Counted from the stretch's first letter, positions 4,264-34,933 are shown. The stretch is 43,360 bases of DNA from Gammaproteobacteria bacterium (GCA_022826305.1 JAJDVC010000071.1:1-43360); one strand, 5' to 3'. Translations and numbers: made by a program. The notes: generated by a model not told the origin, from the sequence alone.

Positions 4264-4275
4264 GATAACGAAACG

Positions 4276-5573: not shown

Positions 5574-5606
5574 CATCCATCGTAGAGTGTCCTGTATTGT
5601 CGGAAG

Positions 5607-7995: not shown

Positions 7996-8075
7996 ATTTC
8001 ATATAATCCTCCATTCCTGATTCGGTGGGCGGTCCCGGCAGGGTCGCCGATCTATTGGCATTGTGGAGGAACGAG

Positions 8076-9050: not shown

Positions 9051-10554
9051 AGAATACCAGGCTATTGCCGGGCAGCTCGAGTTGCCCGGATGCGCCTATA
9101 TCGACGGCAAGTTTCGAAGTGCCCACAATGGTGATACGTTCGAATCCATAAATCCGGCCAATGGCCAGGTGCTGGCCAGCATCACTGCGTGCGGGCAGGA
9201 AGAAGTGGACTTTGCCGTATCGAAAGCGAGACAGGCGTTCGAGGACGGACGGTGGTCCGGCCTGCCGCCAGTGGAACGCAAGCAGGTGATGATCCGGCTG
9301 TGCAAGCTGATCGCCCGCAACGCACGCGAGCTGGCGGTCATGGAAAGCCTGGAAAGCGGCAAGCCAATATCGGAAATCGAGACCATAGACATCCCTGAAA
9401 CCATTCATTGCATGCAGTGGCATGCAGAGGCCATGGACAAGATCTACGGGCAGGTTGCACCGGGGCCGGATGATGTGGTTGCCATGATCGTGCGCGAACC
9501 GGTTGGCGTGGTGGCCTGTGTGCTGCCGTGGAACTTCCCGCTGATGATGATCGCCTGGAAGATGGCTCCGGCCCTAGGCGCCGGAAACAGCCTGATCATC
9601 AAGCCCGCCGAGGAGACCAGCATGACTGCGCTGCGTCTGGCGGAACTGGTCACGGAAGCCGGTGTTCCGGACGGGGTGGTCAATGTGACGCCGGGCCCCG
9701 GAGAACTCACCGGCCGCGCGGTCGGCCTGCATCCGGATGTCGACATGGTTTCATTTACCGGTTCGACGGAAGTCGGCAAGCTGTTTCTGAGATATTCGGC
9801 AAACAGCAACATGAAGCGGGTCGTGCTGGAGTGCGGAGGGAAGAATCCGTGCATCGTCCTGGATGATGCAGAGGATCTTGATGCCGTGGCCCGGCATGTC
9901 ACGAACGGCGCTTTCTGGAACATGGGGGAGAACTGTTCCGCAAGCTCCCGCCTGATCGTGCACGAGGCGGTCGCCGACGCGCTCGTGGAACGCGTACTGA
10001 ACTGGTTGCGCAACTGGCGGACCGGACCGCCGCTGGATCCGGCGAGCAGGCTGGGCGCCATTGTTTCGGAAAAACAGCATCGGCAGATTCTCGACCATGT
10101 CAAGTCGGCAGGCCAGCAGGGGGCAACCGTTCTCGCAGGAGGAAAGGCCATGGATATCGGCAGCGGGTTCTTCATCGAACCGACCGTACTTGCCGACGTC
10201 ACGCCGGACATGGCGGTTGCCAGGGAGGAAATTTTCGGACCCGTTCTGGCGGTCATCGCTGTGGGTGACGAGAGTCAGGCGCTCAGGATTGCCAATGATA
10301 CATGCTACGGACTGACGGCATCGCTTTTCACGGCCAGCCTGAGGCGGGCCCATCGCATGTCCCGCGCCATCCGGGCCGGCACCGTGACCGTCAACTGTTT
10401 CGGGGAAGGCAATATCACCACGCCCTTCGGCGGCTACAAGCAGTCGGGATTCGGGGGACGGGACAACTCCCTGCATGCCCATGATCAGTATACGGAACTG
10501 AAGACCATCTGGATTGATGTATCCGATCAGGATACGGGCGAGGATCCGGTATAG
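9028..10554 (+). CDS. NAD(P)-dependent aldehyde dehydrogenase (PuuC / semialdehyde dehydrogenase-like)
   Basis: 508 aa with WNFPL, FTGSTEVGK, catalytic Glu in LECGGKNP and catalytic Cys in GENCSASS. It overlaps the DapA-like stop by 23 nt. Confidence 0.9.
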   Translation: MSSLLTHEEYQAIAGQLELPGCAYIDGKFRSAHNGDTFESINPANGQVLASITACGQEEVDFAVSKARQAFEDGRWSGLPPVERKQVMIRLCKLIARNARELAVMESLESGKPISEIETIDIPETIHCMQWHAEAMDKIYGQVAPGPDDVVAMIVREPVGVVACVLPWNFPLMMIAWKMAPALGAGNSLIIKPAEETSMTALRLAELVTEAGVPDGVVNVTPGPGELTGRAVGLHPDVDMVSFTGSTEVGKLFLRYSANSNMKRVVLECGGKNPCIVLDDAEDLDAVARHVTNGAFWNMGENCSASSRLIVHEAVADALVERVLNWLRNWRTGPPLDPASRLGAIVSEKQHRQILDHVKSAGQQGATVLAGGKAMDIGSGFFIEPTVLADVTPDMAVAREEIFGPVLAVIAVGDESQALRIANDTCYGLTASLFTASLRRAHRMSRAIRAGTVTVNCFGEGNITTPFGGYKQSGFGGRDNSLHAHDQYTELKTIWIDVSDQDTGEDPV

Positions 10555-10714
10555 CCCTTGCCGTGCAGATCCGGTATGCAGGGTGCTGTCAACCAGGGTC
10601 CGGGGGATTGGTCGGCTACAGATGGCCGCACGGCTTCTTCCCTCACCCGCAAGTCGGCCGTGTCCTCCGGTCGCCAGCAGTCGGCGCGGCCGGAAATGTC
10701 ATGAACCGGAGGCG

Positions 10715-12055
10715 ATGGAGCGGGAAATGAATCAGGTGCTTGCCGCAAGGGAAATTCCCAATTTCGAGACGCGTTCCGGATGGTATGCAGTTCTGCCATC
10801 TCCGCCTGCCGCACGTCGGCTTGAGCAGGACGTGCATGCCGATGTGGTGATTGTCGGGGCCGGGTTCGCCGGACTGACCGCCGCGCGCCGATTGCGGCAG
10901 CAGGCGCCGGATTGCAGGATTGTGGTCCTGGAGGCCCAGCGCATCGCGTGGGGAACCTCCGGACGCAACAGCGGCTTCATGATCGACCTGCCGCATCATC
11001 TTCGAGGCAGCGACTACCGCGGTTCGCATGATCGGGACAGGCGGGAGATCGCCATGAATCGTCACGCCATGGATTATGCCCGCTCGATGGTCGGGGAGTT
11101 CGGCCTGCAGGGGTCGATCAGTCATGCAGGAAGGATAAGCGCCGCCGCAAGTCCCGGCGGGATGAAGATGCTGGAAGACTACGTGAAACATCTCGCCGGG
11201 CTTGGGGAGGACTGCACGGTCCTCGACACTGAACAGGTCAGGGAGATTACGGGCACCGGCTACTATCTGGGCGGTATCCATCTGCCGGGTTGCCTGGTGA
11301 TTCAGCCAGCGGCCTATGTGCGGGGCATTGCGTCGGCCCTGTCTGCATCGGTCGATATCTACGAGGAATCCCCGGTCGTGCGGATCCAGTGCGGCAGGAC
11401 TGTCCAGGCAGTAACGCCCGGAGGAACGGTGCATGCCGGGAAACTGATCCTTGCAGTCAATGGACACCTGGAATCCTTCGGCCTGTACCGCAGGCGTCTG
11501 ATGCACGTCGTCCTGTTCGCGAGCATGACGCGGGCGCTCTTGCAGAAGGAGTTGGGTGCCCTGGGCGGCGAGGAGGAATGGGGTATCACCCCTGCCCATC
11601 CCCTGGGGTCCACGGTCAGGAAACTGAAGCCTGGACGTATCGTGATGCGCAATCATATTGCCTACAGTTCCTCACCAGTCCCTGGAGGCAGCGAGCTTGC
11701 CAGGGCTGCCCGTCAGCATGACCGCGCGTTCCATGACAGGTTTCCCATGCTGGGATCGGTAACAATGGAACATCGCTGGAGCGGGATGCTCTGCCTCTCG
11801 GGCAATGACATGCCGGTATTCGGGGAAGTGGCCGAGGGTGTCTATGCCGCATGTTGCCAGAACGGGCTTGGCGTTGCCCGCGGCACGCTTGCCGGACTCC
11901 TGATTGCCGACCATGTGCTCGGCCTTGCAAACGACATGACGGAGTCCTTTCTCAACGCCGATGCGCCCCGCAGGCTGTTTCCCGAGCCCTTCATGTCAAT
12001 CGGCGCAAGCGCGCGCCTGTGGTGGGGGCAGATGCGGGCAGGCAGGGAAATCTGA
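10715..12055 (+). CDS. FAD-dependent oxidoreductase (DAO family, PuuB/gamma-glutamylputrescine-oxidase-like)
   Basis: DVVIVGAGFAGLTAARRL (GxGxxG) is followed by GTSGRNSG. The start is either ATG 10715 or ATG 10727 (MNQVL..., better SD spacing). The 10514 extension is Arg/Pro-rich and was discarded. Confidence 0.85.
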   Translation: MEREMNQVLAAREIPNFETRSGWYAVLPSPPAARRLEQDVHADVVIVGAGFAGLTAARRLRQQAPDCRIVVLEAQRIAWGTSGRNSGFMIDLPHHLRGSDYRGSHDRDRREIAMNRHAMDYARSMVGEFGLQGSISHAGRISAAASPGGMKMLEDYVKHLAGLGEDCTVLDTEQVREITGTGYYLGGIHLPGCLVIQPAAYVRGIASALSASVDIYEESPVVRIQCGRTVQAVTPGGTVHAGKLILAVNGHLESFGLYRRRLMHVVLFASMTRALLQKELGALGGEEEWGITPAHPLGSTVRKLKPGRIVMRNHIAYSSSPVPGGSELARAARQHDRAFHDRFPMLGSVTMEHRWSGMLCLSGNDMPVFGEVAEGVYAACCQNGLGVARGTLAGLLIADHVLGLANDMTESFLNADAPRRLFPEPFMSIGASARLWWGQMRAGREI

Positions 12056-12067
12056 AAGGTGGCTCGC

Positions 12068-13264
12068 ATGCCGAATACCGTGGAAACACTCGGCATGCTG
12101 CAGGCGCGCAAGATCGCCCTGCATGCCCAGCAGGTGCTGACACGGGACCGGTCGGGCAGGGCGATCGACGCCACCCGCTCGGCGATCCGGGCCCTGGGAT
12201 ATGTGCAGATCGACACCATATCGGTTGTCGAACGGGCGCATCATCATACGCTCTGGAACCGCAATCCCCGTTACCGGGCCGCCCATCTGGATCAGCTTCA
12301 GGCACAGGGGAAGGTGTTTGAATACTGGTCCCATGCCGCAGCCTATCTCCCGATCGAGGATTACCGCATGTGCCTGCCGCACATGGAACGGATTCGTGCC
12401 GGCGATGCGCTGTGGTTCAGGGCCGATCCGGACATCAAGCGCCAGGTGCTGGAACGGATCCGGGAGGAGGGGCCGCTGCAGTCGAAGGATTTCGGCAATC
12501 ATGGCAGGACCGGGCTGCCGATGTGGGAATGGAAACCTGCCAAGTACGCTCTCGAGACACTGTTCATGGAAGGTGAACTGATGGTGGTGCGGCGAAACAA
12601 TTTCCAGAAGATCTACGATCTCACCGAGCGGGTGCTGGATACCGGGGTGGATGCAAGGTTTCCCGAACCGCAGGAATATGCAGACTTCCTGATCGACCGC
12701 TTCCTCGGTGCGAACGGGCTGGGCACGGCAGCCCAGATCGGCTACCTGAGAAAGGGCATGACAAGGCGTATCGAGAACCGGCTCGAGGAGAGGGAGGTGG
12801 CGGGAGATCTTGTCGGCCTGGATGTCGCCGGCATCCGGTACCACGCCAAACCCGATGCGCTGGAACTGCTGGATCGCCCCCTGTCCCGCTCCAGGGTTCG
12901 CATCCTTTCGCCTTTCGACAACCTGGTCATCCAGCGGCAACGGATCCGGCACCTGTTCGATTTCGATTATCAGATCGAATGTTATGTGCCGAAAGCGAAG
13001 CGTCGGCACGGCTATTTCTGCCTGCCGGTGCTGTGGGATGCAAGACTGGTTGCCAGGATCGACTGCAAGGCCGATCGCGGGACGCAGACCCTGATCGTGA
13101 GAAACGTGGTACTTGAGCCGAGGCCCCTGAGGCGGGGGAAATTCTGCGAGGCCCTGAAACGGGCATTGTCGGAATTTGCCGTTTTCAACGGATGCGGACA
13201 TGTTCAGGTGGAACAGGCGCCGGATCGGCAAATCCGTGAGGCGCTGCAGGGCGCCGTTTCATGA
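12068..13264 (+). CDS. Winged-helix DNA glycosylase YcaQ/AlkZ family (DUF1006)
   Basis: ALGYVQIDTISVVERAHHHTLWNRNPRY...FEYWSHAAAYLPIEDY...FQKIYDLTERVL matches the family as I remember it. An ATG at 12068 lies behind GGTGG; a GTG at 12059 is also possible. Confidence 0.8.
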   Translation: MPNTVETLGMLQARKIALHAQQVLTRDRSGRAIDATRSAIRALGYVQIDTISVVERAHHHTLWNRNPRYRAAHLDQLQAQGKVFEYWSHAAAYLPIEDYRMCLPHMERIRAGDALWFRADPDIKRQVLERIREEGPLQSKDFGNHGRTGLPMWEWKPAKYALETLFMEGELMVVRRNNFQKIYDLTERVLDTGVDARFPEPQEYADFLIDRFLGANGLGTAAQIGYLRKGMTRRIENRLEEREVAGDLVGLDVAGIRYHAKPDALELLDRPLSRSRVRILSPFDNLVIQRQRIRHLFDFDYQIECYVPKAKRRHGYFCLPVLWDARLVARIDCKADRGTQTLIVRNVVLEPRPLRRGKFCEALKRALSEFAVFNGCGHVQVEQAPDRQIREALQGAVS

Positions 13265-13289
13265 AGCGTTTCGGGCGCAGGAGAGGCTG

Positions 13290-14171
13290 GTGAAACTGTC
13301 CAATCACAGCAAGGGGCTGCTGATCACCGGCATCGGGGTGCTGGCCATCAGCCCCGACGGCCTGCTGCTGAGACTGATTTCAGCCGATGTGCTGCTGATC
13401 ACCTTCTGGCGCGGCCTGCTCTACAGCGCCGGCATGGTGATCCTGCTGACGCTGTACTACAGGACGCGGATCCTGGATGCGTTTCTCGGCATGGGCAGCC
13501 CCGGACTGCTGATGGTCGTCACGTACTTTACGGGCAGCCTGGCATTCGTCTACTCCATTACCCACACGGCGGTGGCCAATACCCTGTTCATCATCAGCAC
13601 GACACCGCTTTTCGCGGCGCTGATAGCCTGGCTTGTCTTTCGCGAGCGGGTACCGCGCCGTACGTGGATAGCGATCGCCGTGTCGGGGGTCGGAATCGTC
13701 GTCATCTGTTCGGGGAAGAGCATCATGCCCGGAGCCTGGCTCGGCAACCTCGCCGGTCTGCTGACCGCCCTGTCGCTCGCTGTCGGATTTACGGTGGTGT
13801 CGAAGGCCCGGGAGCGCGATATGCTGCCTGCGCTTGCGCTCGGCGGCTTTCTGACTGCCCTGGTTCTCGAGCCGTTCGTGGAACCCTACCAGACGACGGA
13901 TCAGGACCTTTACTACCTGTTCATCATGGGATTCGTTCTGACGCCGGTTGCGGCCAGCCTCATGTATATCGGACCCCGGTACATTTCGGCTGCGGAAGTC
14001 GGGCTCATGATGCTGCTGGAGTCGGTGCTCGGGCCCCTGTGGGTATGGTATTTCATCGGGGAGAATCCCGGATCCCTCGTGCTGATCGGCGGTACCGTTG
14101 TCCTGGTCACGCTGTCCGTGCATGCCGTTGTCGGTCTGCGTGAGTCCACGAACGCAAAACCACCGTCCTGA
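13290..14171 (+). CDS. DMT-superfamily (EamA-type) transporter
   Basis: GTG at 13290 is preceded by GGAGAGG. The product is about 293 aa with roughly ten hydrophobic segments in two repeated halves, typical of EamA duplication. The upstream part of ORF 13176 overlaps the YcaQ gene. Confidence 0.8.
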   Translation: MKLSNHSKGLLITGIGVLAISPDGLLLRLISADVLLITFWRGLLYSAGMVILLTLYYRTRILDAFLGMGSPGLLMVVTYFTGSLAFVYSITHTAVANTLFIISTTPLFAALIAWLVFRERVPRRTWIAIAVSGVGIVVICSGKSIMPGAWLGNLAGLLTALSLAVGFTVVSKARERDMLPALALGGFLTALVLEPFVEPYQTTDQDLYYLFIMGFVLTPVAASLMYIGPRYISAAEVGLMMLLESVLGPLWVWYFIGENPGSLVLIGGTVVLVTLSVHAVVGLRESTNAKPPS

Positions 14172-14520
14172 CGGACTTCGTCCCTTTTGAAACGGGGCAT
14201 CGCATCAAGCCGTACGGACTGGATCAGCGTTCCGGATGGATCTGTGATCCGAGAGCCGGCGGACAGCGAAGCGGTGCGAATCCGTTCGTGTTGGTCAGGT
14301 GGTGATAGCCAGTAGACATCACAACTCTCCGTTTTGCCTGCAGGGATTGCTTGCCATCATCCGGCCTGCTGGAAGCCGGGCAGATATCCCGCATCAAACC
14401 TGCATGTGTCGTACCTCAGGCTGGCACGGGGGTGTGGCATGAAATGTTGCATCGGTCAGGAAAGCGGAACAGGCCACCAGAATCCGATTGCACATCTCTC
14501 GCATGGGCGGAATATGTTAT

Positions 14521-15366
14521 CTATGCCCTGGCCGTATAAAGAGATGGTTCCAGGTTGCACTGGTCCTGCAGATGACCATGCAGAGTGAACATCCGTGGCT
14601 TTGAGCCAAATCTGAAAAGGCGGTACAGGAAGTACTGGGACGGATTTTCCCGGGAGAACGCCAGTTCGTTTTTCGTGACGAAAAACGGCGTGTTCTTTCC
14701 GTATTTTGTCGTCTTCACCTCGATGAAGCGATCCTTGCCGTTCTCCTCGCGGGACAGGATGTCGAAGCCAGCCGATGGCCCCCGGGTTTCGGATACCCGC
14801 TCGATGCGGTCGGCCAGCGAGTCCCGGCCAGCCCGGATGAGCCTGGCGCGCTCGAAGTTAATGATGAATTCTTCGCCGGCGTTGCCGAGCCTTTGATTCC
14901 GGGCTTCTCTTTCAAGGTAATTCACACTGGCGGGATTGGGGATGACCGATGTCACTGATCTGGCCGGATCGGCAGGTCCCTCCTTCGGCGGAGGCTCTTC
15001 CATCGCTGACAGCCAGTCTTCGACGGAAGGAATAATTGGATCAGCGTCGGAATGGTCCTGAAATAGCCCCTGCAGCGCAGGATTCCTGTCAAGATACTGG
15101 TAAACCGCATCGGGCAGTATTGACCTCTGGTAATTCGACAGGGGCTTGTAGCCGTCAATGTATGGGATGCCCATCTCGATCAGGACGGCGCTGATATTCT
15201 GATGCTTCCGTTCGACGGAGCCATCGGAACGGTCGTCGAGCCGCTCCAAAAGGATACGCCGATGTTCGGTCTTGTTGAATTTCTGGCCGGAAAGCTCAAG
15301 ACGGAGCATGTCGAAGTAGTCTTCGACTGTCGCCTCAACTTCGGTTCTCGACCAGTTCCTGGACAC
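14521..15366 (-). CDS. DUF3883-domain protein (PD-(D/E)xK restriction-endonuclease-like C-terminus)
   Basis: 281 aa with a GTG start. The C-terminus reads GFDILS...RFIEVKTT...PFFVTKNELAFS...YFLYRLFRF, which matches the DUF3883 pattern. The N-terminus (W.RTEVEATVEDYFDM...SVERKHQNISAVL) resembles the head domain seen on some McrA/HNH-type restriction proteins. Confidence 0.75.
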   Translation of the reverse strand: MSRNWSRTEVEATVEDYFDMLRLELSGQKFNKTEHRRILLERLDDRSDGSVERKHQNISAVLIEMGIPYIDGYKPLSNYQRSILPDAVYQYLDRNPALQGLFQDHSDADPIIPSVEDWLSAMEEPPPKEGPADPARSVTSVIPNPASVNYLEREARNQRLGNAGEEFIINFERARLIRAGRDSLADRIERVSETRGPSAGFDILSREENGKDRFIEVKTTKYGKNTPFFVTKNELAFSRENPSQYFLYRLFRFGSKPRMFTLHGHLQDQCNLEPSLYTARA

Positions 15367-16104: not shown

Positions 16105-17398
16105 ATGAATGAAATGCCCTTTCCGAAGCCGCCAGCAGCGGAGCCGTTGCCGCTGGAAATCTGGCTGGACCGGCCGGACCGCGCCGAAGTCGGCCGGGAG
16201 CCGTTCTTCCGCGGACGGGACGCGGAGTTCGAGGTCTTTCGCCGGGCGGCCTCGACGCAGGCATGGTCGGCGGCGGCACGATGGTGTTCCAGGGTGCGGC
16301 GGGCGCCGACAAGTCGGCGCTGATGGCGGAGTGCATGGAGGCGGTGCGGCGCCATTCGACTCCCGGGGACCCCTGGGTGGCGGTGGCGATCAGGCCCGAG
16401 ACCCTGAAATCCGCCGTCGATGTCATGATGCGCCTGATCGAGGCGGCCAGTGCGGAGAGCGAGCGGCTTTCGCAGATGGCGTCCGGGACAGTCGCCGGGA
16501 AGCTCGAGAAGCTTCTGGAGGTCGGCCGGCAGTTCTACGGGGAGTTGTCGGCACGGGGCATGGGCGTGGCGGGTGTTTCCATGGGGGGCAGGCCTGAAGT
16601 CGGGGGTAGCGGGGGTGCGGACATTTCTGCGGAGCGGATATTCCGGGACGCGGCCCCGCTGCTGGGAGATCTCCATCTGGTGGTGCTGGTGGATGAAGCC
16701 CAGAACACGCCGGTATCCGACACGACCCGGGGGGTGATGGATTGTCTGCACAATCCGCCGGCAGGAATTCCCCTGGTGGCGGCGTTCTTCGGTCTGAGCG
16801 ATACCCAGGATGTGCTGCGCGAGTGCGGCCTGTCGCGGTTCGCCAGTGGGCGGGTGGTGACCCTCGATCGGTTGCCGGCCGGGGATGCGGCCAGCGCCAT
16901 CCGGAGTGTCCTCGACGCCTACGGCTTCACGGGCACGCCGCAAGACCGGGAAGTGTGGGTGAACGAACTGGCCGGACTGTCCCAGGGGTGGCCGCAGCAC
17001 GTCAACCGGGTGGCCGTGCTGCGGCCCGGGTGATCCGTGCCAACGGCGGACGGATCGGTTCGGGACATCTGGACGAGGCCATGGCGGCTGCGGAGGAATA
17101 CAGGCGGGAATACTATGCCGGCCGGCTTGCGGCCGGTTCCAGCCGGGCCTGGATCTATCGGGAACTGGCCCTGGCCGCCCAGGAGAGGGGCGGTGAATTG
17201 TCCCATGACAGGATCGAGTCACTCACCGAAGGAATGCGTGGCAAGGCAGGACAGTCGATGGATGATTTCCTGACCAATGCCCTGCATGCCGGGTTGCTGG
17301 CCCCGTCCCGGGACATGCCCGATCATTACCGGATCCCCATTCCGTCTCTCGGGGACTACCTGCGGGCCTTGCCGATGGATTCTCCATCACGGATCTGA
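16105..17398 (+). pseudogene. AAA/P-loop ATPase (AAA_16-like) disrupted by two frameshifts
   Basis: The sequence reads through three frames. Frame 1 gives MNEMPF...FFRGRDAEFEVFRRA (from 16105). Frame 0 gives ...MVFQGAAGADKSALM...LVVLVDEAQN... (16263-17033). Frame 2 gives ...AAARVIRANGG...LGDYLRAL (to 17398). Walker A reads GAAGADKS, with Asp where the GxxGxGKS Gly is expected. Confidence 0.6.
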
Positions 17399-25518: not shown

Positions 25519-27081
25519 TCAGCAACAGATCATGCTCAACAGCGCGCGTGCCCTGCTCATTCCGACATAGTGAAGCGACCGCAAGGTCTCGCTATGCCCG
25601 GGTCTGGGCATGTCGACAAGAACAACCACCTCGCTCTCAAGCCCCTTGAAATCCGTGATCCGTGCAAAACCGATGGTTCGACGACTGGCGTTGCGGGGTG
25701 AACTGTCGTCCAGGACGGAGATCGAGTCCCGCAAATCCCCGGACAGGGAAGACGCCCAGGACTTCGCAAACGGAACGGGAGAAAGCATGACGATGTCTCC
25801 CGGGCTGAATCCCCCGTCATCCATCAGGCCGCAGAGTTCGTTCTCCAGGGACCGGACGGCATCGTCTGCTCCGGCAACCCGAACTTCATGTACCGCAGGA
25901 CCATCTCCGACTCCTGAATTGCCCACATCGGCGTTCAGGTCGTCCTGTATCCGTCGCAGGATCGGCAGCGAATTCCGGCAGTTCGTCTTCAGGGGAATTC
26001 GCACCGGGCCGAAGCTTTCCAGATAGTCATGGGCATCGGGTACATAGGATCCGCACAGCCCGGACTGATTGTTGGAGTCGTGAAAAAAGCACCAGCGGCT
26101 TTCGCTTATGCCGCCATTCAAACAGCCATCCAGCCGGGCCAGCGCATCCATGTTCAATATGTCCTGGCCTTCATCGACGATCAGCGCGTCAAATTTTTCA
26201 ATGCCGGCACGCCTTGCTGTCACATGAATCGAATCCACCAGGCTGACAGTCAGCCCGGGCCCGGCGTTCCGTTCGAGGAAACGCTTGAGCCAGGGCGAAT
26301 GGCAGGCCAGTGCGGTTTTCATTCCGGACGCGCCCCAGCGTTTCGCCAGCTCAAGCGCCAGCATCGTTTTTCCTGTCCCGGCGCCTCCGGAACATACTAC
26401 CCGCGGGTTGGCCTCGACGACATCAATCAACCCCAGCTGATCCGCCGTCAGGCGAGCGATGCGCATTTCCACATCATGGGCGGAAACATGCAGCGGCACG
26501 ACAGCCTCGAAATCGGGTCGCAGGTGTTGCTGCAACAGATTCAGGTGCGAAGGGGTTGCGACAGTCCTGCGGGCATCCTTCGCACGCCAGTACCGAATGA
26601 ATCGTTCCAGCCACTTTTCGAATTGCCTGAAGTCCCGGCCGTCGGCAAGAACGGCGCGATCCCATTCGGCGCTGTCTGGAAGCCGTTCCACATCCGGCAT
26701 GACCACACCGTATCCGACCACGAAATTCCTGGAGACGGTGGCGGGAAGCTTTTTCCGCAAACCATGGAGTGCCCCCTCCGCCTGTCTGAACGGCGACTCC
26801 CGCAATCGCTCGGTTCGGCCATGCCTGTTCGTGGTTTCCCAGACGCCGTGACGGCAGGAAACGCCGCCACCCTTGACCTCCAGCACGAAAAGGCCGTCCG
26901 GTCCGCAGACGACGAAGTCGATTTCTCCGAAACGCTTGTCTTCATGCCGCGGAAGGTTGAGCGAGTGCATGGCAAACCAGACATTCTTGTCCGGCCCGGA
27001 AAATGCCGCGCACAGCTGGTCGAACATGCGCATTTCCGCATTACTGCCGGTTCCCAGGGGCTGGCTGGGGATCATCCGCAT
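25519..27081 (-). CDS. NERD nuclease-domain / SF1 (UvrD-like) helicase fusion protein
   Basis: The start is ATG 27081, or ATG 27075 forming an ATGA overlap with the upstream stop. The NERD core reads FGEIDFVVCGPDGLFVLEVKGG. SF1 motifs seen: SGGAGTGKT (Walker A), ALIVDEGQD (Walker B), KTNCRNS, KGLESEVVVL and YVGMSRARALL. Confidence 0.85.
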   Translation of the reverse strand: MRMIPSQPLGTGSNAEMRMFDQLCAAFSGPDKNVWFAMHSLNLPRHEDKRFGEIDFVVCGPDGLFVLEVKGGGVSCRHGVWETTNRHGRTERLRESPFRQAEGALHGLRKKLPATVSRNFVVGYGVVMPDVERLPDSAEWDRAVLADGRDFRQFEKWLERFIRYWRAKDARRTVATPSHLNLLQQHLRPDFEAVVPLHVSAHDVEMRIARLTADQLGLIDVVEANPRVVCSGGAGTGKTMLALELAKRWGASGMKTALACHSPWLKRFLERNAGPGLTVSLVDSIHVTARRAGIEKFDALIVDEGQDILNMDALARLDGCLNGGISESRWCFFHDSNNQSGLCGSYVPDAHDYLESFGPVRIPLKTNCRNSLPILRRIQDDLNADVGNSGVGDGPAVHEVRVAGADDAVRSLENELCGLMDDGGFSPGDIVMLSPVPFAKSWASSLSGDLRDSISVLDDSSPRNASRRTIGFARITDFKGLESEVVVLVDMPRPGHSETLRSLHYVGMSRARALLSMICC

Positions 27082-28724
27082 GACGGGCCGTTTCCGTTTT
27101 CCCTTGCGTCGATTTCCTCCAGACTGGCAAGTTTGTCGCGCACGCCGGACTCGATCTGAGGATCTATCGGCGGCCATTGACCGAGACGGCGCAGAAATTT
27201 GGCCTCATCCATTTCTTCCGTGACAGTTGATAGCCTGCCCGGCAACACTACCTGCAAGCCCTTTCGTTCAAGGTTTTCAGGTAAATAGCCATCCTCCAGA
27301 GTGATGTGTGTCTGAATGCAGTCGTTCCACCTGCATTTGCTCGCGAGTTCCATGGCTACATCCTTCTTCATGCGGCACCACTCACCACCTGGTGAAGTAA
27401 AAAGTTCTCTCAAGGGTTTCGGGCGTGGCGGCGCCTTCATGTCAAGCTTGTCAGCTTGTTTCTGGTGCTCGGCATCTGCCATGCGATATGCCACATAGGC
27501 AGACATGGCAGGATCGCGCAACTCCCTGGGCAGCCTCAGCCAGCTGTCACGCACACCGAACAGGATTCCAGCAAGAAGATACTCGGCATCACTCAATAGC
27601 GGATGTGAAAATTCCAGCAGGTCCGTGCAATGCTCACGCAGGCAGAACAGTAGTAAAGGTCTCGATAAAGACCCCCTGTGCCGTTCAAGAAGCTCGGTGA
27701 TTGTTCCGCCACCGAGTCCGAGGAAACCACGCATGTCCGAGATCAGTTGCTCCAGACGTGGCCGAAATTCCATTGCCTGCAACAGATCGAGCTGATTCTC
27801 CAGATACGCAAGCGCCACATCAAGGGGCGTTTGCGGGCGTTCCTGCGTCTGTGCTGTGACCAGCGACTGGATAACGCCCCAAAATAGCCGGGCACCGACA
27901 TCGGCCTGTCCGGATACCTCAAACCCGTCCATCCAGTTGGGAAGCTCGGCCAGTACGGGGTCGCTTTGGACCAGTTCATTATCCTTGTCGTGCACGATTC
28001 CAGTTGCCATGCGAAAGGCTGCAAGCCCCAGATCACTGCGATTGGCGATGTGATACAACATCGCAAGCACGCCACCAAGCGCCAGCCCAAAGGCGGGAAA
28101 ATTGTCACTGCCGTCCTCAGGCAACTGCTCCTGTGGCTGCTTTGCCGGCCACGTGACCTTCGTGTCGGAGGAAAACAGCGAATCCGCAATCTCAATCCGA
28201 TAAGGGAACAGATCAACGTTCGAGACATCATCGGCGGCACTTTCGAATGCCTGTTTGTCCTCGGATGAGCAGAAGTTGACACTCGACAGCAAGGTTGTCG
28301 GTAATGGCGCACGGACAAGGAGTGCAATGTCGCCTAGGCGCCTGCGCCAGTGCGCGCTTCGTGAACCAACCTTTTGCATATCTCCAACCTCTCGCATACC
28401 TCCGTCCCGCGACAGTATCCGAACAGGGCCGGACAGATCACTCAAATCGAAAGACGCGATGCAGGGCAACAAATGCTTGCGTTCACTGGTAGCGTGATTC
28501 AGGGCATCAGCTGGAACCTCGAAATTGACATGAAACAAGGGGATCCAGCCGGGATAGACATCCAATGGATCAGCATAGTGCTTGCTTCGAAAACCCGCAG
28601 GACCCATCACCATGCCGGCAGCCAGCATGTAAAGCATGTTCTGGTGGTTGGTTACCAAGTGCCATATGCGCACCGGTTTTCGTCGATTTCGTGGCTTCCT
28701 TGGAGTATCTGGTTTCGTGGTCAT
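27072..28724 (-). CDS. Hypothetical protein, 550 aa, no recognisable motif
   Basis: A long ORF embedded in the operon. Its ATG at 28724 lies 3 nt after the upstream stop, and its stop overlaps the next start. The basic N-terminus (TPRKPRNRRKP) is followed by WHLVTNHQNMLYMLAAGMVMGPAGF. The C-terminal two-thirds is Leu/Glu/Arg-rich. Confidence 0.8.
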   Translation of the reverse strand: MTTKPDTPRKPRNRRKPVRIWHLVTNHQNMLYMLAAGMVMGPAGFRSKHYADPLDVYPGWIPLFHVNFEVPADALNHATSERKHLLPCIASFDLSDLSGPVRILSRDGGMREVGDMQKVGSRSAHWRRRLGDIALLVRAPLPTTLLSSVNFCSSEDKQAFESAADDVSNVDLFPYRIEIADSLFSSDTKVTWPAKQPQEQLPEDGSDNFPAFGLALGGVLAMLYHIANRSDLGLAAFRMATGIVHDKDNELVQSDPVLAELPNWMDGFEVSGQADVGARLFWGVIQSLVTAQTQERPQTPLDVALAYLENQLDLLQAMEFRPRLEQLISDMRGFLGLGGGTITELLERHRGSLSRPLLLFCLREHCTDLLEFSHPLLSDAEYLLAGILFGVRDSWLRLPRELRDPAMSAYVAYRMADAEHQKQADKLDMKAPPRPKPLRELFTSPGGEWCRMKKDVAMELASKCRWNDCIQTHITLEDGYLPENLERKGLQVVLPGRLSTVTEEMDEAKFLRRLGQWPPIDPQIESGVRDKLASLEEIDARENGNGPSCG

Positions 28725-28727: not shown

Positions 28728-29912
28728 CTACTTCCTGACAAGAATAGAGGGATCGGTGGGCAGTAATCCATCCACGACGGGACAAATATCGCCAGTACGG
28801 AGCAGCATGACCTGTTCCCGGGCACGCGCCACCATTACATAGAAACGTGCCTTGAGCGCATGAGGATCGCGTTTGGGCTGGTGTTGGTCGATATCAGCCA
28901 GGATGACGGTATCAAACTCCAGGCCCTTGCAGGACTGGGCGTTTATGACCATGATGCCGCCCTGTCCGAAGTTCGGCAATTCCTGCTGACCGGAAACAAA
29001 GGTCTGGATCGGCGATTTGTCATTGTCCAGTTCTGGATTGGCGCAACGAAGCGCGTCATCGAATTTCGTCCGCACCTTGTTGTCCGGAGTAATGATTCCG
29101 ATCAGCTTGCGGGGATTGCGGTCGCTCAACTGGAGGATATTGTCTGCAATATCAGCCAGTGTTGCCGTGTTTCCCGTGCCATAAGTCCATAACTCCGGCA
29201 CCGTGGCAGCAGGCATGAGATCGGGCAGGTCCGGCCTTGGACTGGCCGGATCCGCTGGGTAAAAGTGCCGGGCGAGCAGCGCGACAGGATACGCGTTCCG
29301 ATAGTTGGTTTTCAGTTCCAGCGTGTCATCGGGTTCAATGGCCAGCGTGTTTTGAATATCCTGGCGAGAGCTGCACTTGTCGGGGTGAATCTGCTGGTTC
29401 TGGTCGGCTGCCACGTAGAAATTCTCGAATCCCAGGTAAGTCAGTGTTCGATAAAAGGCTGGCGGCATATCCTGTCCCTCATCGATCACCAGAAACTTAT
29501 CGCCTTGATTTTCGATGTTATCCAGCGATTGGACCTGTTGTTCGACGGCATTCCAGTCTATTGGTCGATATCCTCCCGGATCATCTGGCTCAAGCGTGGA
29601 AACGGATCCGAAAAAATGACTGCAGATGTTGCGGAACCAGGAATCCCATGTCTGGGCGGAGAATGTGTGTTCACTACCGAACAGATAACGGTTTGAATGA
29701 TTCAGCAAGTGATTGTAAACGAGAGTACGGTAGTTCTTGTCGTTCTGTGCGAGGCGTCGCGCCCGCAGCAACGCCACCACCGACTTCCCGGTGCCAGGGC
29801 CGCCGACGATCAGGTGTTGCCCCTCCACTGGCAACGCCAGCGCCTCATCCTGATCCTTGTTCAGGTCATGAATGCCGGGGAGGCTGAATCGGCGGGTACG
29901 ATCAACCGGCAT
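28728..29912 (-). CDS. Compact SF1 (UvrD/Rep-like) P-loop ATPase
   Basis: ATG at 29912 (Met42 of ORF 28728..30035) lies 2 nt after the DrmB-like stop. The product is 394 aa. Motifs seen: VGGPGTGKS, FLVIDEGQDMP, LKTNYRNA, SCKGLEFDTVIL and FYVMVARARE. Confidence 0.85.
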   Translation of the reverse strand: MPVDRTRRFSLPGIHDLNKDQDEALALPVEGQHLIVGGPGTGKSVVALLRARRLAQNDKNYRTLVYNHLLNHSNRYLFGSEHTFSAQTWDSWFRNICSHFFGSVSTLEPDDPGGYRPIDWNAVEQQVQSLDNIENQGDKFLVIDEGQDMPPAFYRTLTYLGFENFYVAADQNQQIHPDKCSSRQDIQNTLAIEPDDTLELKTNYRNAYPVALLARHFYPADPASPRPDLPDLMPAATVPELWTYGTGNTATLADIADNILQLSDRNPRKLIGIITPDNKVRTKFDDALRCANPELDNDKSPIQTFVSGQQELPNFGQGGIMVINAQSCKGLEFDTVILADIDQHQPKRDPHALKARFYVMVARAREQVMLLRTGDICPVVDGLLPTDPSILVRK

Positions 29913-29914
29913 GT

Positions 29915-31738
29915 TCAGTTTGTCCCGAAGAATGAAGGCAGCCCGTCGGCAGCATCGCCCTTGACGAATCCGCGATCCAGCAGGGTATTGCCGTATTCGC
30001 AGGCAGGTTCCGGTACCAGCGTACAGGCATGACATGCAGCGCGGTTCAGCAGGCCTGGTCCTTGACCTTCATGCCTGCTGCAAACCGGATCAAGCGAACA
30101 CCAGCGTGAATGCTCCAGTGCTCGAATCAGGATGCCCAGAAAGCGTCGGGGTTCGCTCAGTTCAGCCAGGCCGCCCAGTGAACCGGCGATATCAGGAACG
30201 GCAACATGGATGAGGATACCGGCCATGGGCTCGAGTGCATTGGCGCAATAGATGCGCTCGATCAGCGCCGCCGCCGGATAACCACCCTCGGACTCGATTT
30301 GTCGCATCAGCAGGTGTGACAACGTGTGCAGTAACATGAAGCGCGTTGTTACCGGATTGGGGTCATCCCGACCGGATTGGGCAAATCGGGGAAGCAGTTG
30401 ATCCAGTCGCGAAACAATCGTCGGTGTTTGCTCCCATTCCTTGAGCCGATCCTCATCAAGCGCAAGGAAAATACCCTCTCCGTACAACTCTATGGCTGGC
30501 AACCAATCGGATTTCCCCACGATGTCCGGTGGTACCACTTCCTCTCCTCCCAGGCGGGTAAAACCCCTGAATACCTTCACCGCCTTCAGGCGATCCACAC
30601 GGACAAGATGGCGGATGCCCCGGACAATTTTCCGCTCATCAGCATCCAGATCGACCGCCATACCCAGTTCACGCCACTCCTCACTCCTGTTGCAGGTCAC
30701 CAGGTCTTCGTCCTCGCGCTGGTCGGGCAGCACCTCCAGGAATGCCCTGAACTCGCTTTCCCGCAATTGTCCTGGCGTAAGGTTCTCGCCATACAGGGGA
30801 TAGCCGCTGTCAAGATTGGCCAATGCAGTTTCGATATCGTTGAGGGTACAGCGATATTTCGTCGTCAGTTCCCGCAGGATGCCTTTTCTCGCCAATGGAA
30901 CTCTTGCACTGTCTATGCGACTACGATCACCGGAATTGCGGTACAGGCGATCCACGACGGTTCCCTTGCGCACACGGGATTCCGGCGGAATCACCAGAAC
31001 GGATTCAGCGACTGGTTCGTAAACCCGCGTGTCATTGATCGCCAGCACCTGCGCCTGATCCTTGTCACCTTCTTGCGTGAATTCCATCGGCGAAACCAGA
31101 TCCTCCCTGGTCCATGGCTGCATCCGACCCTGACCAAAGCCCACTCGTTCATCGCCACGAAACCTCGTTGCGGTGCGGCAGGCGCCGCACCGCAATATGC
31201 GTTCTTCGTAGCCACGTTCAATCAACCGTAATTGATCCTGCACCTTGCAGTTGCGTTGCGACGGATCACGGGTCCCTTGATGCGCGAGAAAATGCCAGGG
31301 CACATCGGCAAGGTACCCTTCGGGATGTCCCAGCACCCAGGGCACCTGCTCCAGCTTCGGGTGACGCCTGCAATCCTGATGACTGCAATGGTGTGCGTGA
31401 TCGGGCTGATTGTTCCGCCATGGCCAACGATACATGGCGCCACAGGCCGGGCAGCGCATCCAGGAGGGGAATCGCGTTGCCGGTACACTGGTGCCATCCA
31501 CCCGTCCATTCGCCAGTTCCCTTGCCACTGGTGGCTTGCACAATTGCTCCTTGATGCCCAGCGCGGCACGCACGCGCTCCACATACGGAATCGGCTCGCC
31601 AGCGGGGATACCCTGGCGGTCCGTCCATTGCCGGGTGTCCTGAACGACCACGAGTCCATTCGGCCCACGCACGATTGCCCCGATACCGCTATAGCCGATC
31701 AGGTGTGACAGGCGTATCGGAATCAGTTCATTGTCCAT
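29915..31738 (-). CDS. DUF1998-domain protein, DrmB-like
   Basis: 607 aa. The C-terminus reads LLHTLSHLLMRQIESEGGYPAAALIERIY ... WCSLDPVC ... AACHACTLVPEPACEYGNTLLDR, which is the DUF1998 four-Cys module. N-terminal Zn-ribbon-like pairs are also present (CPACG...HHCSHQDC and RCGACR). Confidence 0.85.
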   Translation of the reverse strand: MDNELIPIRLSHLIGYSGIGAIVRGPNGLVVVQDTRQWTDRQGIPAGEPIPYVERVRAALGIKEQLCKPPVARELANGRVDGTSVPATRFPSWMRCPACGAMYRWPWRNNQPDHAHHCSHQDCRRHPKLEQVPWVLGHPEGYLADVPWHFLAHQGTRDPSQRNCKVQDQLRLIERGYEERILRCGACRTATRFRGDERVGFGQGRMQPWTREDLVSPMEFTQEGDKDQAQVLAINDTRVYEPVAESVLVIPPESRVRKGTVVDRLYRNSGDRSRIDSARVPLARKGILRELTTKYRCTLNDIETALANLDSGYPLYGENLTPGQLRESEFRAFLEVLPDQREDEDLVTCNRSEEWRELGMAVDLDADERKIVRGIRHLVRVDRLKAVKVFRGFTRLGGEEVVPPDIVGKSDWLPAIELYGEGIFLALDEDRLKEWEQTPTIVSRLDQLLPRFAQSGRDDPNPVTTRFMLLHTLSHLLMRQIESEGGYPAAALIERIYCANALEPMAGILIHVAVPDIAGSLGGLAELSEPRRFLGILIRALEHSRWCSLDPVCSRHEGQGPGLLNRAACHACTLVPEPACEYGNTLLDRGFVKGDAADGLPSFFGTN

Positions 31739-31741: not shown

Positions 31742-34700
31742 TCATAACGCCTTGAGCAGTGCGGTGTCTTCGACGTTGCGCAGGGATTGCAGGGCCACCC
31801 ACAGGCCACGAATCGGGTCATCATGGTTGTACAACAGGCGATCGCGCCCATTGTCCTTTTCGGGAACCTGGTACTCCAGCCGTCTTTGATCTTCCCGGCA
31901 ACGCTTGATCTCGCCCGTCCATTCGGCAATCAGGTAGTCGATATGCCTGCTTACCTCATCGACCTGATCGGGCGCTGACAGTACGCAACGTCGTTTGAAT
32001 TGTTCAATGGCCCTGGAAACTCTCGAATCTTCCGGATCAAGGCTGTCGGCGGAACGGTTATGCAACAATCCGGTCGCACCGTGTCGCATCACGATGACCA
32101 ACGCCGCCGGCAGGGCGCGCAGGCGGGCCTGGTAGGTATAAGGCGTGACGCTGGTAGGCTCGACAAAGCGGTAGAAGGCTTCATGGTAAGGGCGGAAGCT
32201 CTCGTAGTGTGACAGGCTGCGAGCCTGTTCACGGTAGTAGTTCGCGAATACCACGCCAGTCGCCGCGCCGCGCCCCACGCGGCTGCTGGCCTGAATGTAC
32301 TCCGCTGTGGTCAGTGGCTGACCGTTGATGATCATCAATGCCAATCGAGCCACGTCAAGCCCGACGGAGATCATGTTGGTGGCCAGCACGGCGTCCAGGC
32401 AGCCATGCTCTTCGCGCGTCCTGCCCAATCGGGAAAAAATCTCTGCATTCTGCGTCGCCGTCTGCAGGCTGGTCAGCTGTGCAATGCGCGGCGTAGAGCG
32501 TTCCTGTCTTTCCACCTTTCCGTCTTCCTGAGCCTGACCGACCATTGTACTGGACAACAGCCGCATGAAATCGCGCACATCGCTCGCAAAGGCCGTGTGA
32601 CTGTTCCCCACCCCCCTTAGACTGCCGTGATACACCACCTGCGTCCACCAGGCATCCAGCAGTTCCCGCTCGTGCTGATCACCCTCAAACAGCACGAGCG
32701 GAGCCAGCAGCAATGCTGCCGCCAGCGGTGCCAGGCATCTCTGACGATTCAGCATCGGCGCAAGATAGCCCACGTAGATTCGGCCCGGGCGTTGATCCAG
32801 AGGCACGGTACGGGCGAAATAGGCATCGTCGCAACTCAGTCCCGGAGGCGGAAACACGGCGACTTCGCGTCCATACAGTCGTTTCACCTGCTGGTCCGCC
32901 ATGCGGATGGTGGCGGTCGATGCAATGTACTTTGGATAGACACCACGCAATTGAAGCACGGTGTCGATGGCGGCTTCGTACAGACCGGCCACCGAACCCA
33001 ACGCACTGGCTATCAGATGCAGTTCATCCTGGATGATCAGTTCCGGTGGTCGATGCTGCGTGCCTCCCAGGAACGCATTGGCACGTTCTTCCCAGGCCAG
33101 CCTCGCGAACTTGTCCACCGTGGCGACCAGCATGGTCGGCGGTTCGGCATACAGGGCTTCATCAACGATATTGCAAGGAAGCACGCCATCCGGGGACACG
33201 CCGAAGCCGCAGTCCGGGTTCCGGCAAAGGAAATGGAAATGTTGCGTGGTGCTGTCGTAGTTGCGGTCTGCCTCAAAGTCCTGCCCGCACCAGGGGCAGT
33301 GGTCGATTGCCAGCTCCGGTTTTTCGTTGGCGGCAATCGCCTTCCTTACCAGTTCGGCGGCTTTCTGGAAGGAGTTGGGGCTGGTGGCCTCTCCCACCCA
33401 CATGCCTATGTTGATCGGCGCGGAACCAAGATCATCGCGTTCGCGCCGTATCAGTTCCAGCGCACAGATCAGGCGGGCGGCGCGCATGAACTGGTCGCGG
33501 GTCAGCAGGCGCAGGGTATAGCGCATCAGGACCGCGGTGCCGCCCCCGGTATCGGGATGGCGAAGACGCCGCAGCGTGATCTGGAATGCGATCAGGCCGA
33601 GGTAGGCTTCGGTCTTGCCGCCGCCCGTCGGAAACCAGATCAAGTCGACCGCATCTCGGAATTCGTTGTCTTCGTTTGCCACGGATTCCAGAGTGGTCAA
33701 CAAGAAGGCCAACTGGAACGGACGCCAGCGATAGGCGCCGTCAGCGCAGGATTTGCCCTGAAGACGATCATGCTGACGCATCTGATCCAGCATGGCGCGA
33801 TTGGTCAGGGCAAGGGCCAGCCGTGCCTGTGCATTGGCGCCCAGCAGGCGCATGCCTGCACGCATGCGCGAGACGGCTGTGTTCATCCGCCCGACCATGT
33901 GTCTTGCGACTGAACGATCATCGGCTGGAAGGTCCGGGATTCTGCCCTGTTGGCTGACAACCCAGTTCGCATATCCGCTTATGAAATCGTCCAGCTCGGG
34001 CAAGAGGGTTGCGTGAGCGTTGTCGATGTCCGCCAGTCTCACCAGCGATAGTACAGGCTCGCCGCCTGATCCGGTATCCGCCGTCATCTGCGGAACCTCC
34101 ACCACCGGCATCGTTTCGGAGCGCAGTTCAGTGACCTTCCCGTCCTTCACCTCCCAGTCGGCGGCGCAACCATGCCCGATGGCGTAAATGTGTCGTTGGG
34201 CGTACTGGAGTTCGATTTCCTGTTCTTCCCGGTCCAGCAGGCTTCGGTCGATGCGAGGATAGACACCGACATCGCCGGCGTCGATCACGCAGTGCAGACT
34301 GGCCTCGAACAGGGTCTTTTCCGCGCGTTCGTAGACGTAGTCGCTACCAGTCGCGCTGTCTGCAAGCTCCTGAGCATTGCAAAGGGAAACCGTGACGATC
34401 CAGCCATCGGCGAAGTGACGCCACTGGATGTCCACGTGCGCCTTGCCTGCCAGTTTTGAAAAGCTCTGGCGCTGATCATTTCCAGGACAGCTGATGTTCT
34501 CGAACTCCAGGAAATCCCCTTGCCCGGAAATCAGGTCCCTGCGTTTCCATTCGTTTTTGTATTGTCCTCTTTCATTTCGCCCTGTGCGTTCATACCTGAC
34601 GGCATGGCACAACACCTGGAACCGGATATCCTCGCCCCTGACAAAAAACGAGAAACCCAGTGACGATGGTGGAATGTAACGTCGCACAACAGCAGGTTCG

Positions 34701-34933
34701 GTTGTGTTTTCTCCCACACCATCAGTAGCACCCTCAATTTCACCAACATCTTCACCAGCAGGGTCAATGCCTTCGCCCCATCTGGATGTGGGGTAAAGCG
34801 CACCGCAAGGGAAACGCTCCGTGGGTAGCACGCCACGGAAATCCGGGCTATCAGCCACAGGATCAAGTGGGCCGATCAATTGATGGCTTACCCAGTCAAT
34901 CAGCCTCTTTCGTGGTTCAGTGAACATCGTCAT
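31742..34933 (-). CDS. SF2 DEAD/DEAH-box helicase, DrmA-like
   Basis: 1063 aa. Motif I is FPTGGGKTEAYLG, motif II is IIQDELHLI, and motif VI is YIQASSRVGRG. A Zn-ribbon insertion reads HCPWCG...FLCRNPDCGF. About 440 aa of N-terminal region has no motif I can name. Confidence 0.85.
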   Translation of the reverse strand: MTMFTEPRKRLIDWVSHQLIGPLDPVADSPDFRGVLPTERFPCGALYPTSRWGEGIDPAGEDVGEIEGATDGVGENTTEPAVVRRYIPPSSLGFSFFVRGEDIRFQVLCHAVRYERTGRNERGQYKNEWKRRDLISGQGDFLEFENISCPGNDQRQSFSKLAGKAHVDIQWRHFADGWIVTVSLCNAQELADSATGSDYVYERAEKTLFEASLHCVIDAGDVGVYPRIDRSLLDREEQEIELQYAQRHIYAIGHGCAADWEVKDGKVTELRSETMPVVEVPQMTADTGSGGEPVLSLVRLADIDNAHATLLPELDDFISGYANWVVSQQGRIPDLPADDRSVARHMVGRMNTAVSRMRAGMRLLGANAQARLALALTNRAMLDQMRQHDRLQGKSCADGAYRWRPFQLAFLLTTLESVANEDNEFRDAVDLIWFPTGGGKTEAYLGLIAFQITLRRLRHPDTGGGTAVLMRYTLRLLTRDQFMRAARLICALELIRRERDDLGSAPINIGMWVGEATSPNSFQKAAELVRKAIAANEKPELAIDHCPWCGQDFEADRNYDSTTQHFHFLCRNPDCGFGVSPDGVLPCNIVDEALYAEPPTMLVATVDKFARLAWEERANAFLGGTQHRPPELIIQDELHLIASALGSVAGLYEAAIDTVLQLRGVYPKYIASTATIRMADQQVKRLYGREVAVFPPPGLSCDDAYFARTVPLDQRPGRIYVGYLAPMLNRQRCLAPLAAALLLAPLVLFEGDQHERELLDAWWTQVVYHGSLRGVGNSHTAFASDVRDFMRLLSSTMVGQAQEDGKVERQERSTPRIAQLTSLQTATQNAEIFSRLGRTREEHGCLDAVLATNMISVGLDVARLALMIINGQPLTTAEYIQASSRVGRGAATGVVFANYYREQARSLSHYESFRPYHEAFYRFVEPTSVTPYTYQARLRALPAALVIVMRHGATGLLHNRSADSLDPEDSRVSRAIEQFKRRCVLSAPDQVDEVSRHIDYLIAEWTGEIKRCREDQRRLEYQVPEKDNGRDRLLYNHDDPIRGLWVALQSLRNVEDTALLKAL

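Follow-up and report, generated by a model that had tools for sequence, protein, structure and literature searches.

The window considered here is a stretch of 43,360 nt from a Gammaproteobacteria bacterium (GCA_022826305.1, JAJDVC010000071.1:1-43360) that carries, on its minus strand, an operon of five genes in the order DrmA, DrmB, SF1a, X, and NERD-SF1, in which X is the name given to the gene of interest. A conserved cassette without a methylase, composed of DrmA, DrmB, SF1a, and X, with or without NERD-SF1, has X as its defining subunit, and the N-terminal domain of the product of X is predicted to adopt the ADP-ribosyltransferase (ART) fold of DarT. The operon begins with the gene for a DrmA-like superfamily 2 (SF2) helicase (31742..34933, minus), which is matched by the PADLOC DrmA model (1.3e-200) and by the NCBIfam model DISARM_DrmAS at 813 bits, under the cut-off of 950. 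The following gene, DrmB (29915..31738, minus), encodes a zinc-binding protein of the DUF1998/MZB type that scores 322 bits with NCBIfam DrmB_fam, above the cut-off, and 4.5e-48 with PADLOC DrmB. SF1a (28728..29912, minus) is a compact UvrD/HelD-like ATPase of superfamily 1 (SF1), 394 amino acids (aa) in length and recognized by Pfam (UvrD, UvrD_C_2) and PADLOC UvrD-type models; it carries Walker A (GGPGTGKS) and Walker B (VIDEGQD) motifs, has weak PDB sequence matches to HelD and helicase IV, and, judging from its size, is likely to lack a 2B domain. At the downstream end, NERD-SF1 (25519..27081, minus) joins a NERD domain (Pfam, 8.9e-11) to an SF1 helicase (UvrD_C_2 and AAA_30; PADLOC RTasNERD-Hel, 8e-36), possesses a PD-(D/E)xK motif (D…EVK) in addition to Walker A and B, and is probably the nuclease-helicase effector of the cassette. 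The ATPase and nuclease motifs of the proteins that accompany X are intact. The remainder of the window consists of housekeeping genes, and no phospholipase D (PLD) nuclease, methyltransferase, tRNA, or GC anomaly was found in it.

X itself occupies positions 27072..28724 of the minus strand, extends from an ATG start codon through 550 codons to its stop, and belongs to an unnamed conserved family. An earlier note on this DNA, which left the strand unstated, had described a 550-aa orphan open reading frame (ORF) at this position, lying between two SF1 genes 3 nt past the upstream stop and overlapping the next start with its own stop. The junctions are as described. The SF1a stop (TAG, 28730-28728) is followed by the three nucleotides gtc and then by the ATG of X at 28724, with a Shine-Dalgarno-like AGGAAG at 28736-28731, 6 nt 5' of that ATG, and the TGA of X (27074-27072) overlaps two candidate start codons of NERD-SF1, one at 27081 and the other at 27075 as part of an ATGA overlap. 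Full-length homologs with E values of 0 to 1e-227 place X far beyond chance as a real gene. The strongly basic N-terminal tail that had been noticed (PRKPRNRRKP) is present at residues 8-17, and the absence of any P-loop, nuclease, methylase, or zinc family was likewise confirmed in Pfam, NCBIfam, and PADLOC scans, in which nothing reached threshold and no family with a housekeeping role was matched. A single Zap1 zinc-finger match (E 0.0086) was judged to be noise, and PDB sequence searches with X-family profiles yielded nothing beyond designed helical bundles and further compositional noise. Candidate PD-(D/E)xK (D52…E81-x-K83) and HEPN-like R-x-H sites in X were ruled out, K83 and R82 being unconserved.

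The description of the protein as an orphan was mistaken. At least 425 homolog clusters (90% identity) came out of a search of 5.8 billion proteins, and when 50%-identity representatives were searched exhaustively with a profile there were 432 clusters at E ≤ 1e-3 and 193 at E ≤ 1e-30. Full-length homologs are mostly ~500-560 aa long. Almost all of the clusters derive from metagenome-assembled genomes (MAGs), and none bears a name beyond "hypothetical protein" in any source. Among ~185,000 species genomes (one genome per species) there are 70 X loci, all of them in MAGs, that span at least six phyla and include Gamma- and Alphaproteobacteria, Desulfobacterota, Acidobacteriota, Planctomycetota, Spirochaetia, Longimicrobiales, and others. 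Copies from different phyla can be 75-87% identical, a sign of horizontal transfer. Almost the whole family comes from uncultured bacteria of marine, sediment, and sponge-associated origin, a distribution that explains its escape from experimental screens, and no relatives of X were found among IMG/VR viral contigs, PLSDB plasmids, or INPHARED phages.

Gene neighborhoods were compared by tblastn of the window's five proteins against the X loci, with only those loci counted that had enough flanking sequence. SF1a lies directly upstream of X in every case (68/68), DrmB is found upstream in 64 of 66 loci, and DrmA in 59 of 61, such that X homologs almost never occur outside an SF1a/DrmAB setting. 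The position of NERD-SF1 is less constant; among 61 loci it is directly downstream of X in 44, at the front of the operon in 5, and absent from 12. X is also the least conserved of the four proteins DrmA, DrmB, SF1a, and X in 63 of 64 loci, with an identity averaging 12.9 points below that of its partners, as illustrated by locus L038, where the partners are 82-84% identical to those of the window and X is 48% identical. Such rapid divergence fits sensor or specificity subunits, which often diverge in this way. The earlier proposal that X is the component that distinguishes the cassette from DISARM is therefore upheld, in that X is absent from canonical DISARM, nearly confined to SF1a/DrmAB neighborhoods, and the fastest to diverge.

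Several loci are informative about the organization and setting of the cassette. In a chromosome-scale Desulfobacteraceae MAG contig (L057, CAXXNM010000003.1, 8476-13317), SF1a, X, and NERD-SF1 have housekeeping genes and an AAA_21 fragment on their flanks and neither DrmA nor DrmB within 10 kb. The trio thus appears to be a separable module, and the invariant core of the cassette is the SF1a-X pair. In Desulfatitalea, the cassette adjoins a type I restriction-modification (R-M) gene and an insertion sequence (IS) element. The only cultured organism seen to carry the cassette is Aromatoleum bremense (L121, CP059467.1, 3389120-3409716, at 3368-14538), in which a winged helix-turn-helix (wHTH) regulator precedes DrmA, DrmB, SF1a, X, and NERD-SF1; here an IS element (DDE_Tnp_1) divides X into pieces of 198 and 348 aa, and the cassette resides on an integrative element together with DUF3987, AlpA-like HTH_17, single-stranded DNA-binding protein (SSB), and transposase genes. 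A divergent clade, mainly from Acidobacteriota, was also observed, in which X is 31-38% identical to the window copy (L046, L052, L053, L056, L059, L063, L067, L069, L073, and L074; also L051, L055, L062, L065, and L068). At these loci NERD-SF1 is either absent or present before DrmA as a divergent copy with 27-28% identity to that of the window; in the Bryobacterales MAG contig JAJDZN010000245.1 (L059), X is 33% identical to the X of the window.

With DISARM (Ofir 2018; Bravo 2022, PMC9142583) the cassette has in common the split pair of DrmA and DrmB (DUF1998), both of which are recognized by PADLOC and NCBIfam models. It differs in that DrmC (PLD), a DrmMI or DrmMII methyltransferase, and DrmD or DrmE are missing from the cassette genes and the window ORFs scanned, and no methylase, DrmD, or DrmE lies between the conserved cassette genes of related loci; in their place are two SF1 helicases, one of them NERD-fused, and X. 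From this gene content, the cassette is best classed as a methylase-free relative of DISARM and not as canonical DISARM. Other new defense systems centered on YprA-family helicases, namely ARMADA, BRIGADE, and TALON, the last with a NERD nuclease, have recently been described in a study that also notes that there are still "many uncharacterized DISARM-like classes" (Bell et al. 2025, bioRxiv 10.1101/2025.09.15.676423). In these three systems a fused YprA helicase is accompanied by BrxHII/PglX, Dpd-like, or TOTE partners, whereas the cassette has a split DrmA/DrmB and none of those partners, and identity with any of the three was ruled out on architecture. No ART-like protein is mentioned in the text or supplements of that study, and the literature searched contained no paper linking DrmAB or DUF1998 with DarT or ARTs.

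The nature of X was approached through its predicted structure. An AlphaFold2 (AF2) run on 31 close homologs gave a poor model, with a pLDDT (predicted local distance difference test) score of 59, and was replaced by a run on an alignment of 77 sequences reaching down to 24% identity (alignment A2). The final model has a pLDDT of 92.4 and a predicted template modeling (pTM) score of 0.92. In Foldseek comparisons with the PDB, the top seven matches are all DarT (7OMV, 7OMW, 7OMX, 7OMY, both chains of 7YK3, and 7OMU), with a probability of 1.00, E values of 8e-5 to 2e-3, and target template modeling (TM) scores of 0.42-0.54, apart from the longer fusion 7OMU, which scores 0.30. Another ART-fold enzyme, Tpt1, is also matched (probability 0.99), and the ARH3 ADP-ribosylhydrolases come next in the list (E 0.04-0.3, probability 0.7-0.94, TM ~0.3); in the viral structure library BFVD, only uncharacterized viral proteins were matched. 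The assignment of residues 19-185 to a DarT-type ART fold is well supported by this model.

Four parts can be distinguished in the predicted protein. A disordered basic tail (residues 1-18; 28671..28724, minus; pLDDT 63-79), which is poorly conserved across the wider family, precedes the DarT-like α/β domain (residues 19-185; 28170..28670, minus), where pLDDT is mostly 93-98. Residues 211-465 (27330..28094, minus) form an all-helical domain, in keeping with the helical C-terminal region anticipated in the earlier note, and its weak resemblance is to ARH3/DraG (PF03747), the run of ARH3 entries in the Foldseek list following directly upon those of DarT. The C-terminal part (residues 466-550, modeled over 466-545; 27075..27329, minus) consists of a small β-sheet and a long helix, contains the conserved residues W466, C469, T472, G479, and G496, and is possibly a partner-binding element.

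Conservation within the family is concentrated in the N-terminal domain. Residues 19-66, which correspond to the NAD-binding half of the fold, are conserved more strongly than any other region of the protein, and the peak is the block from W21 to F64 (β1-α1-loop-β2; 28533..28664, minus), where the mean frequency of the top residue is 0.64 and N26, N29, G37, K48, and D52 are invariant or nearly so. This is the block that had been singled out as conserved-looking from the single sequence, and in the model it maps to the part of the ART fold that binds NAD. X has an invariant or near-invariant set of its own (N26, K48, Y49/Y50, D52, and N169), and a conserved polar pocket is predicted. The reverse applies to residues 101-131 (28332..28424, minus), which run from β4 to a loop resembling the ADP-ribosylating toxin turn-turn (ARTT) loop, where conservation is the lowest in the domain, pLDDT dips to 62-74, and the anchor-to-anchor segment (99-136) spans 25-38 residues; the window copy has 8 extra residues here (…DMQKVGSR…, ~113-128) relative to all close homologs (alignment A1).

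At the level of sequence, the sole link between X and the ART superfamily is to Pfam PF22546, the 2-component-system ADP-ribosyltransferase domain 2CompART, the genomic context of which differs from that of X. It is matched at E ≤ 0.01 by five of the 77 family members (best E 1.4e-5); the match that was mapped pairs residues 17-68 of member P0222, at the conserved block, with positions 2-53 of the profile and thus with no more than its first half. Its 17.6 bits, the only score that was read, is under the gathering threshold of 27. The X of the window has no 2CompART match, and a profile search with the N-terminal domain only, which appears limited to proteins of at most ~1.75 times the query length, recovered only fragments of the X family. 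The 2CompART matches, weak as they are, together with the DarT fold make NAD or ADP-ribose chemistry or binding the specific lead to the function of X. The earlier note had offered a specificity, sensor, or scaffold role; with an ART-like N-terminal domain, the last of these, in the sense of a featureless scaffold, is no longer apt, and X may be a sensor, a specificity subunit, or an effector.

X was further compared with the full DarT sequence of Thermus, taken from a prophage locus, in a forced local alignment that is of low confidence and serves only as a topological guide to residue mapping. The alignment is collinear across the whole domain, and the seven strands of the predicted fold come in the same order as in DarT. 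The alignment pairs T25 of X with T15 of DarT, N29-L30 with N19-L20, G37 with G27, W60-I-P-L-F64 with Y67-V-P-F-Y71 (F64 thus occupying the position of DarT Tyr71), E81..H84-L with E93…H97-L, and LLV(P/R)APLPxxxIxxIxF with FLVYKAFPWALIEEIAV. The motifs common to both proteins are T-x3-N-L…G, [WY]-[IV]-P-[LF]-[FY], and, over β5-β6, LV…[LF]P..[LI]I..I.

Comparison with known DarT systems places X in a broader setting. Residues 19-185 resemble DarT (PF14487) in predicted fold and have no match to it at the level of hidden Markov models or profiles, and while DarT is the toxin of a two-gene toxin-antitoxin pair, X is a 550-aa protein with two additional domains inside a helicase cassette. Its fused architecture has precedents in a natural fusion of DarT with its macro-domain antitoxin (7OMU) and in DarT-HD fusions of prophages. 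In the latter context, ~440-450-aa proteins were observed at ~2965-4310 of IMG/VR prophage contigs (L080, L081, L083, L090, L095, L104, L105, L110-L112, and L114); the two that were scanned (L080 and L104) are DarT-HD fusions, a macro-domain DarG follows in the three loci scanned (L080, L095, and L104), and the fusion of L080/L081 adjoins tail-fiber genes. The DarT N-terminus also weakly matches Pfam DUF7002. A canonical DarT with a macro-domain DarG was also seen between the type I R-M genes hsdS and hsdR of Escherichia coli STEC1012 (L119, CP061270.1, 1165-9805). The prophage and plasmid DarT loci that were inspected held only canonical DarTG or DarT-HD with a macro domain.

The closest published analog of the SF1a-X pair, compared here by its published description, is DarHTG, in which a UvrD-like helicase without a 2B domain is combined with DarT and the ARG-like antitoxin DarG3 (Liu et al., NAR 2026, PMC13069673). 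DarHTG has been validated in E. coli; its defense there depends on the ATPase of the helicase as well as on the active site of DarT, and its phenotype resembles abortive infection (Abi) (PMC13069673). Both arrangements comprise a compact UvrD-family helicase, a DarT-type domain (in X by predicted fold), and a helical partner. DarHTG, however, has a bona fide DarT and a separate DarG3 module, whereas in X the two parts are fused, go undetected by DarT and ARG models, and lack ARG motifs; moreover, the X module shares its cassette with DrmAB and, in most cases, NERD-SF1. By analogy, X resembles the DarT/DarG3 part of DarHTG in a fused form that has diverged much further, and SF1a and X together may be taken as a DarHTG-like sub-module of helicase, DarT-type domain, and helical "keeper".

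The explanation that we favor, tentatively and at somewhat less than even odds, is that X is a DarT-derived module that faces single-stranded DNA (ssDNA) and handles NAD or ADP-ribose in concert with its helicase, possibly writing ADP-ribose in a non-canonical manner. It draws together the gene order maintained across 70 loci of multiple phyla and the defense-island and mobile-element settings of Desulfatitalea and Aromatoleum; the structural matches to DarT and Tpt1, the 2CompART matches, and the DarT motif correspondence; the contrast between a highly conserved NAD-binding half and a highly variable ARTT-like loop; and the published precedents of DarHTG (PMC13069673), the ssDNA specificity of DarT, which acts on ssDNA only (PMC11543638), and the DarT-antitoxin fusion 7OMU. 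The cassette as modeled suggests the use of NAD/ADP-ribose chemistry and points to a link between DrmAB and ADP-ribosylation that was unexpected.

The proposed mechanism would wire the SF1a-X sub-module to an ssDNA-sensing DrmAB motor and usually also to the NERD-helicase nuclease. The helicases (DrmAB, SF1a, and NERD-SF1) would generate or track, and expose, the ssDNA of an invader. In X, tethered to SF1a, the conserved β1-α1-β2 pocket would take up NAD+ or an ADP-ribose-like ligand, and the variable ARTT-like loop would contact nucleic acid. X might then ADP-ribosylate the ssDNA through a non-canonical site formed by K48, Y49, Y50, and D52 with the semi-conserved acidic residue of β5, which would block replication and perhaps flag the DNA; alternatively, X might only clamp or sense the DNA and license the nuclease of NERD-SF1. 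The helical domain would hold the N-terminal domain in check until the helicases engage, and the NERD-helicase, where present, would degrade the DNA. A bolder form of this proposal, which we regard as rather unlikely, takes X to be an active non-canonical nucleic-acid ART that uses the K48/Y/Y/D52 loop and dispenses with the classical His and Arg51 loop; with the activity of X licensed by three helicases, the cassette would recognize invaders by the topology of their DNA, independently of methylation, and ADP-ribosylate the ssDNA so as to disable or mark it, and the NERD helicase-nuclease would degrade it.

A number of observations weigh against an ADP-ribose-handling function for X, and many of them favor the explanation that X is a pseudoenzyme adaptor or sensor, a catalytically dead and exapted fusion of DarT-like or antitoxin-like type whose ligand would be ssDNA, a phage protein, or a compound derived from NAD and which would switch the helicase-nuclease allosterically with no transfer of ADP-ribose. 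We consider this somewhat unlikely. No ART model reaches threshold on X, and alignments of the X family with DarT in hhalign are not significant (probability <2%). In the residue mapping, the low confidence of which is itself a reason for caution, the position of DarT His13 is hydrophobic in X (L/F/M), and the loop that bears the invariant Arg50/Arg51 of DarT is deleted, its place being taken by the invariant K48-Y-Y-x-D52. The position of Glu160, a residue whose substitution makes DarT catalytically null (PMC11543638), falls at the start of β5, where an acidic residue is present in 50 of 74 members if positions 132/133 are considered, or in 61 of 74 over 131-133, and therefore lost in 13-24 of 74; the X of the window has D132 at this point. 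To judge from these alignments, the canonical DarT active site, in which Arg51 joins the H-Y-E catalytic set of His13, Tyr71, and Glu160, is absent from X. The same appears to hold for the canonical ARG hydrolase site in the helical domain, the resemblance of which to ARH3 is weak (TM ~0.3). None of the ARG signature motifs, taken from YegU, MJ1187, and ARH3 (GDxxGxxxE, TDDT, TH, and GGDTDT), is conserved in the helical domain in the X-family alignment, the ARG family (PF03747) gave no Pfam match in the 77 members, and an hhalign comparison with YegU that sets residues 212-231 on the GDAxG helix is non-significant and has the Asp replaced by Gly218. X is, moreover, the fastest-evolving subunit, as would be expected of a component in contact with phage factors, and a NERD nuclease-helicase is on hand as effector. 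Against a dead enzyme, the polar residues N26, N29, K48, D52, and N169 are invariant or nearly so, and as residues of the NAD-binding half they point to a small-molecule or catalytic site; in addition, the NERD gene is absent from 12 of 61 loci, where another effector activity would be needed. ART enzymes that lack the Glu can still be active mono-transferases, as in the PARP enzymes with an H-Y-I/L signature.

We give less weight to the remaining alternatives. X could be a toxin of abortive infection whose target for ADP-ribosylation is a host protein or RNA and not DNA, or which hydrolyzes NAD+, the helicases acting only as its trigger. The ART fold and the Abi-like phenotype of DarHTG are compatible with this, as is the finding that in cultured Aromatoleum bremense the IS element interrupts X, as might befall a costly or toxic gene; that insertion is, however, a single observation, the closest structural relatives (DarT and Tpt1) are ARTs that modify nucleic acids, and the partners are all DNA motors, which leaves such a toxin improbable. 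We would give the same small chance to a plain structural scaffold that bridges SF1a, DrmAB, and NERD-SF1 and whose fold resemblance is a relic or an artefact of prediction. The structure of X is predicted, not solved, and no significant sequence-profile link ties it to any enzyme family, but model confidence is high, seven independent DarT entries head the list of matches, and conservation is strongest on the polar residues of the pocket-forming half and not on surface patches. Least probable is that the operon serves DNA repair or another housekeeping purpose, with X a repair factor, even though YprA/MrfA relatives of DrmAB act in repair and the genes that flank the cassette in the window are housekeeping genes. 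DrmA and DrmB score as DISARM-type proteins, and the cassette is rare (70 loci in ~185,000 species genomes), patchily spread across phyla with the high interphylum identity indicative of horizontal transfer, adjacent to R-M genes and IS elements, and found on an integrative element.

The DrmAB helicases of DISARM-type systems are thought to require a partner methylase to spare host DNA, and a cassette with neither methylase nor PLD nuclease is of interest for this reason; what it has in their place is a protein of predicted DarT fold tied to a small helicase. A functional X would connect the sensing done by DrmAB with NAD/ADP-ribose chemistry, the helicase-DarT pairing recently validated for DarHTG would extend to a much more diverged and fused form, and a protein family of more than 400 clusters would have lain invisible to PADLOC, Pfam, and NCBIfam. 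Should X prove to be an active non-canonical ART, its effector logic would be new to DrmAB systems, and the ART fold would have a further, new catalytic variant.

Two further observations concern the remainder of the window. About 10 kb from the cassette, a NOV_C (DUF3883-type) protein and a nearby ORF that appears P-loop-like by eye (14521-15366, minus, and 16263-17033, plus) may constitute another defense-type gene pair. A gene for an AlkZ-like DNA glycosylase (12059-13264, plus; Pfam 1e-76) lies amid metabolic genes.

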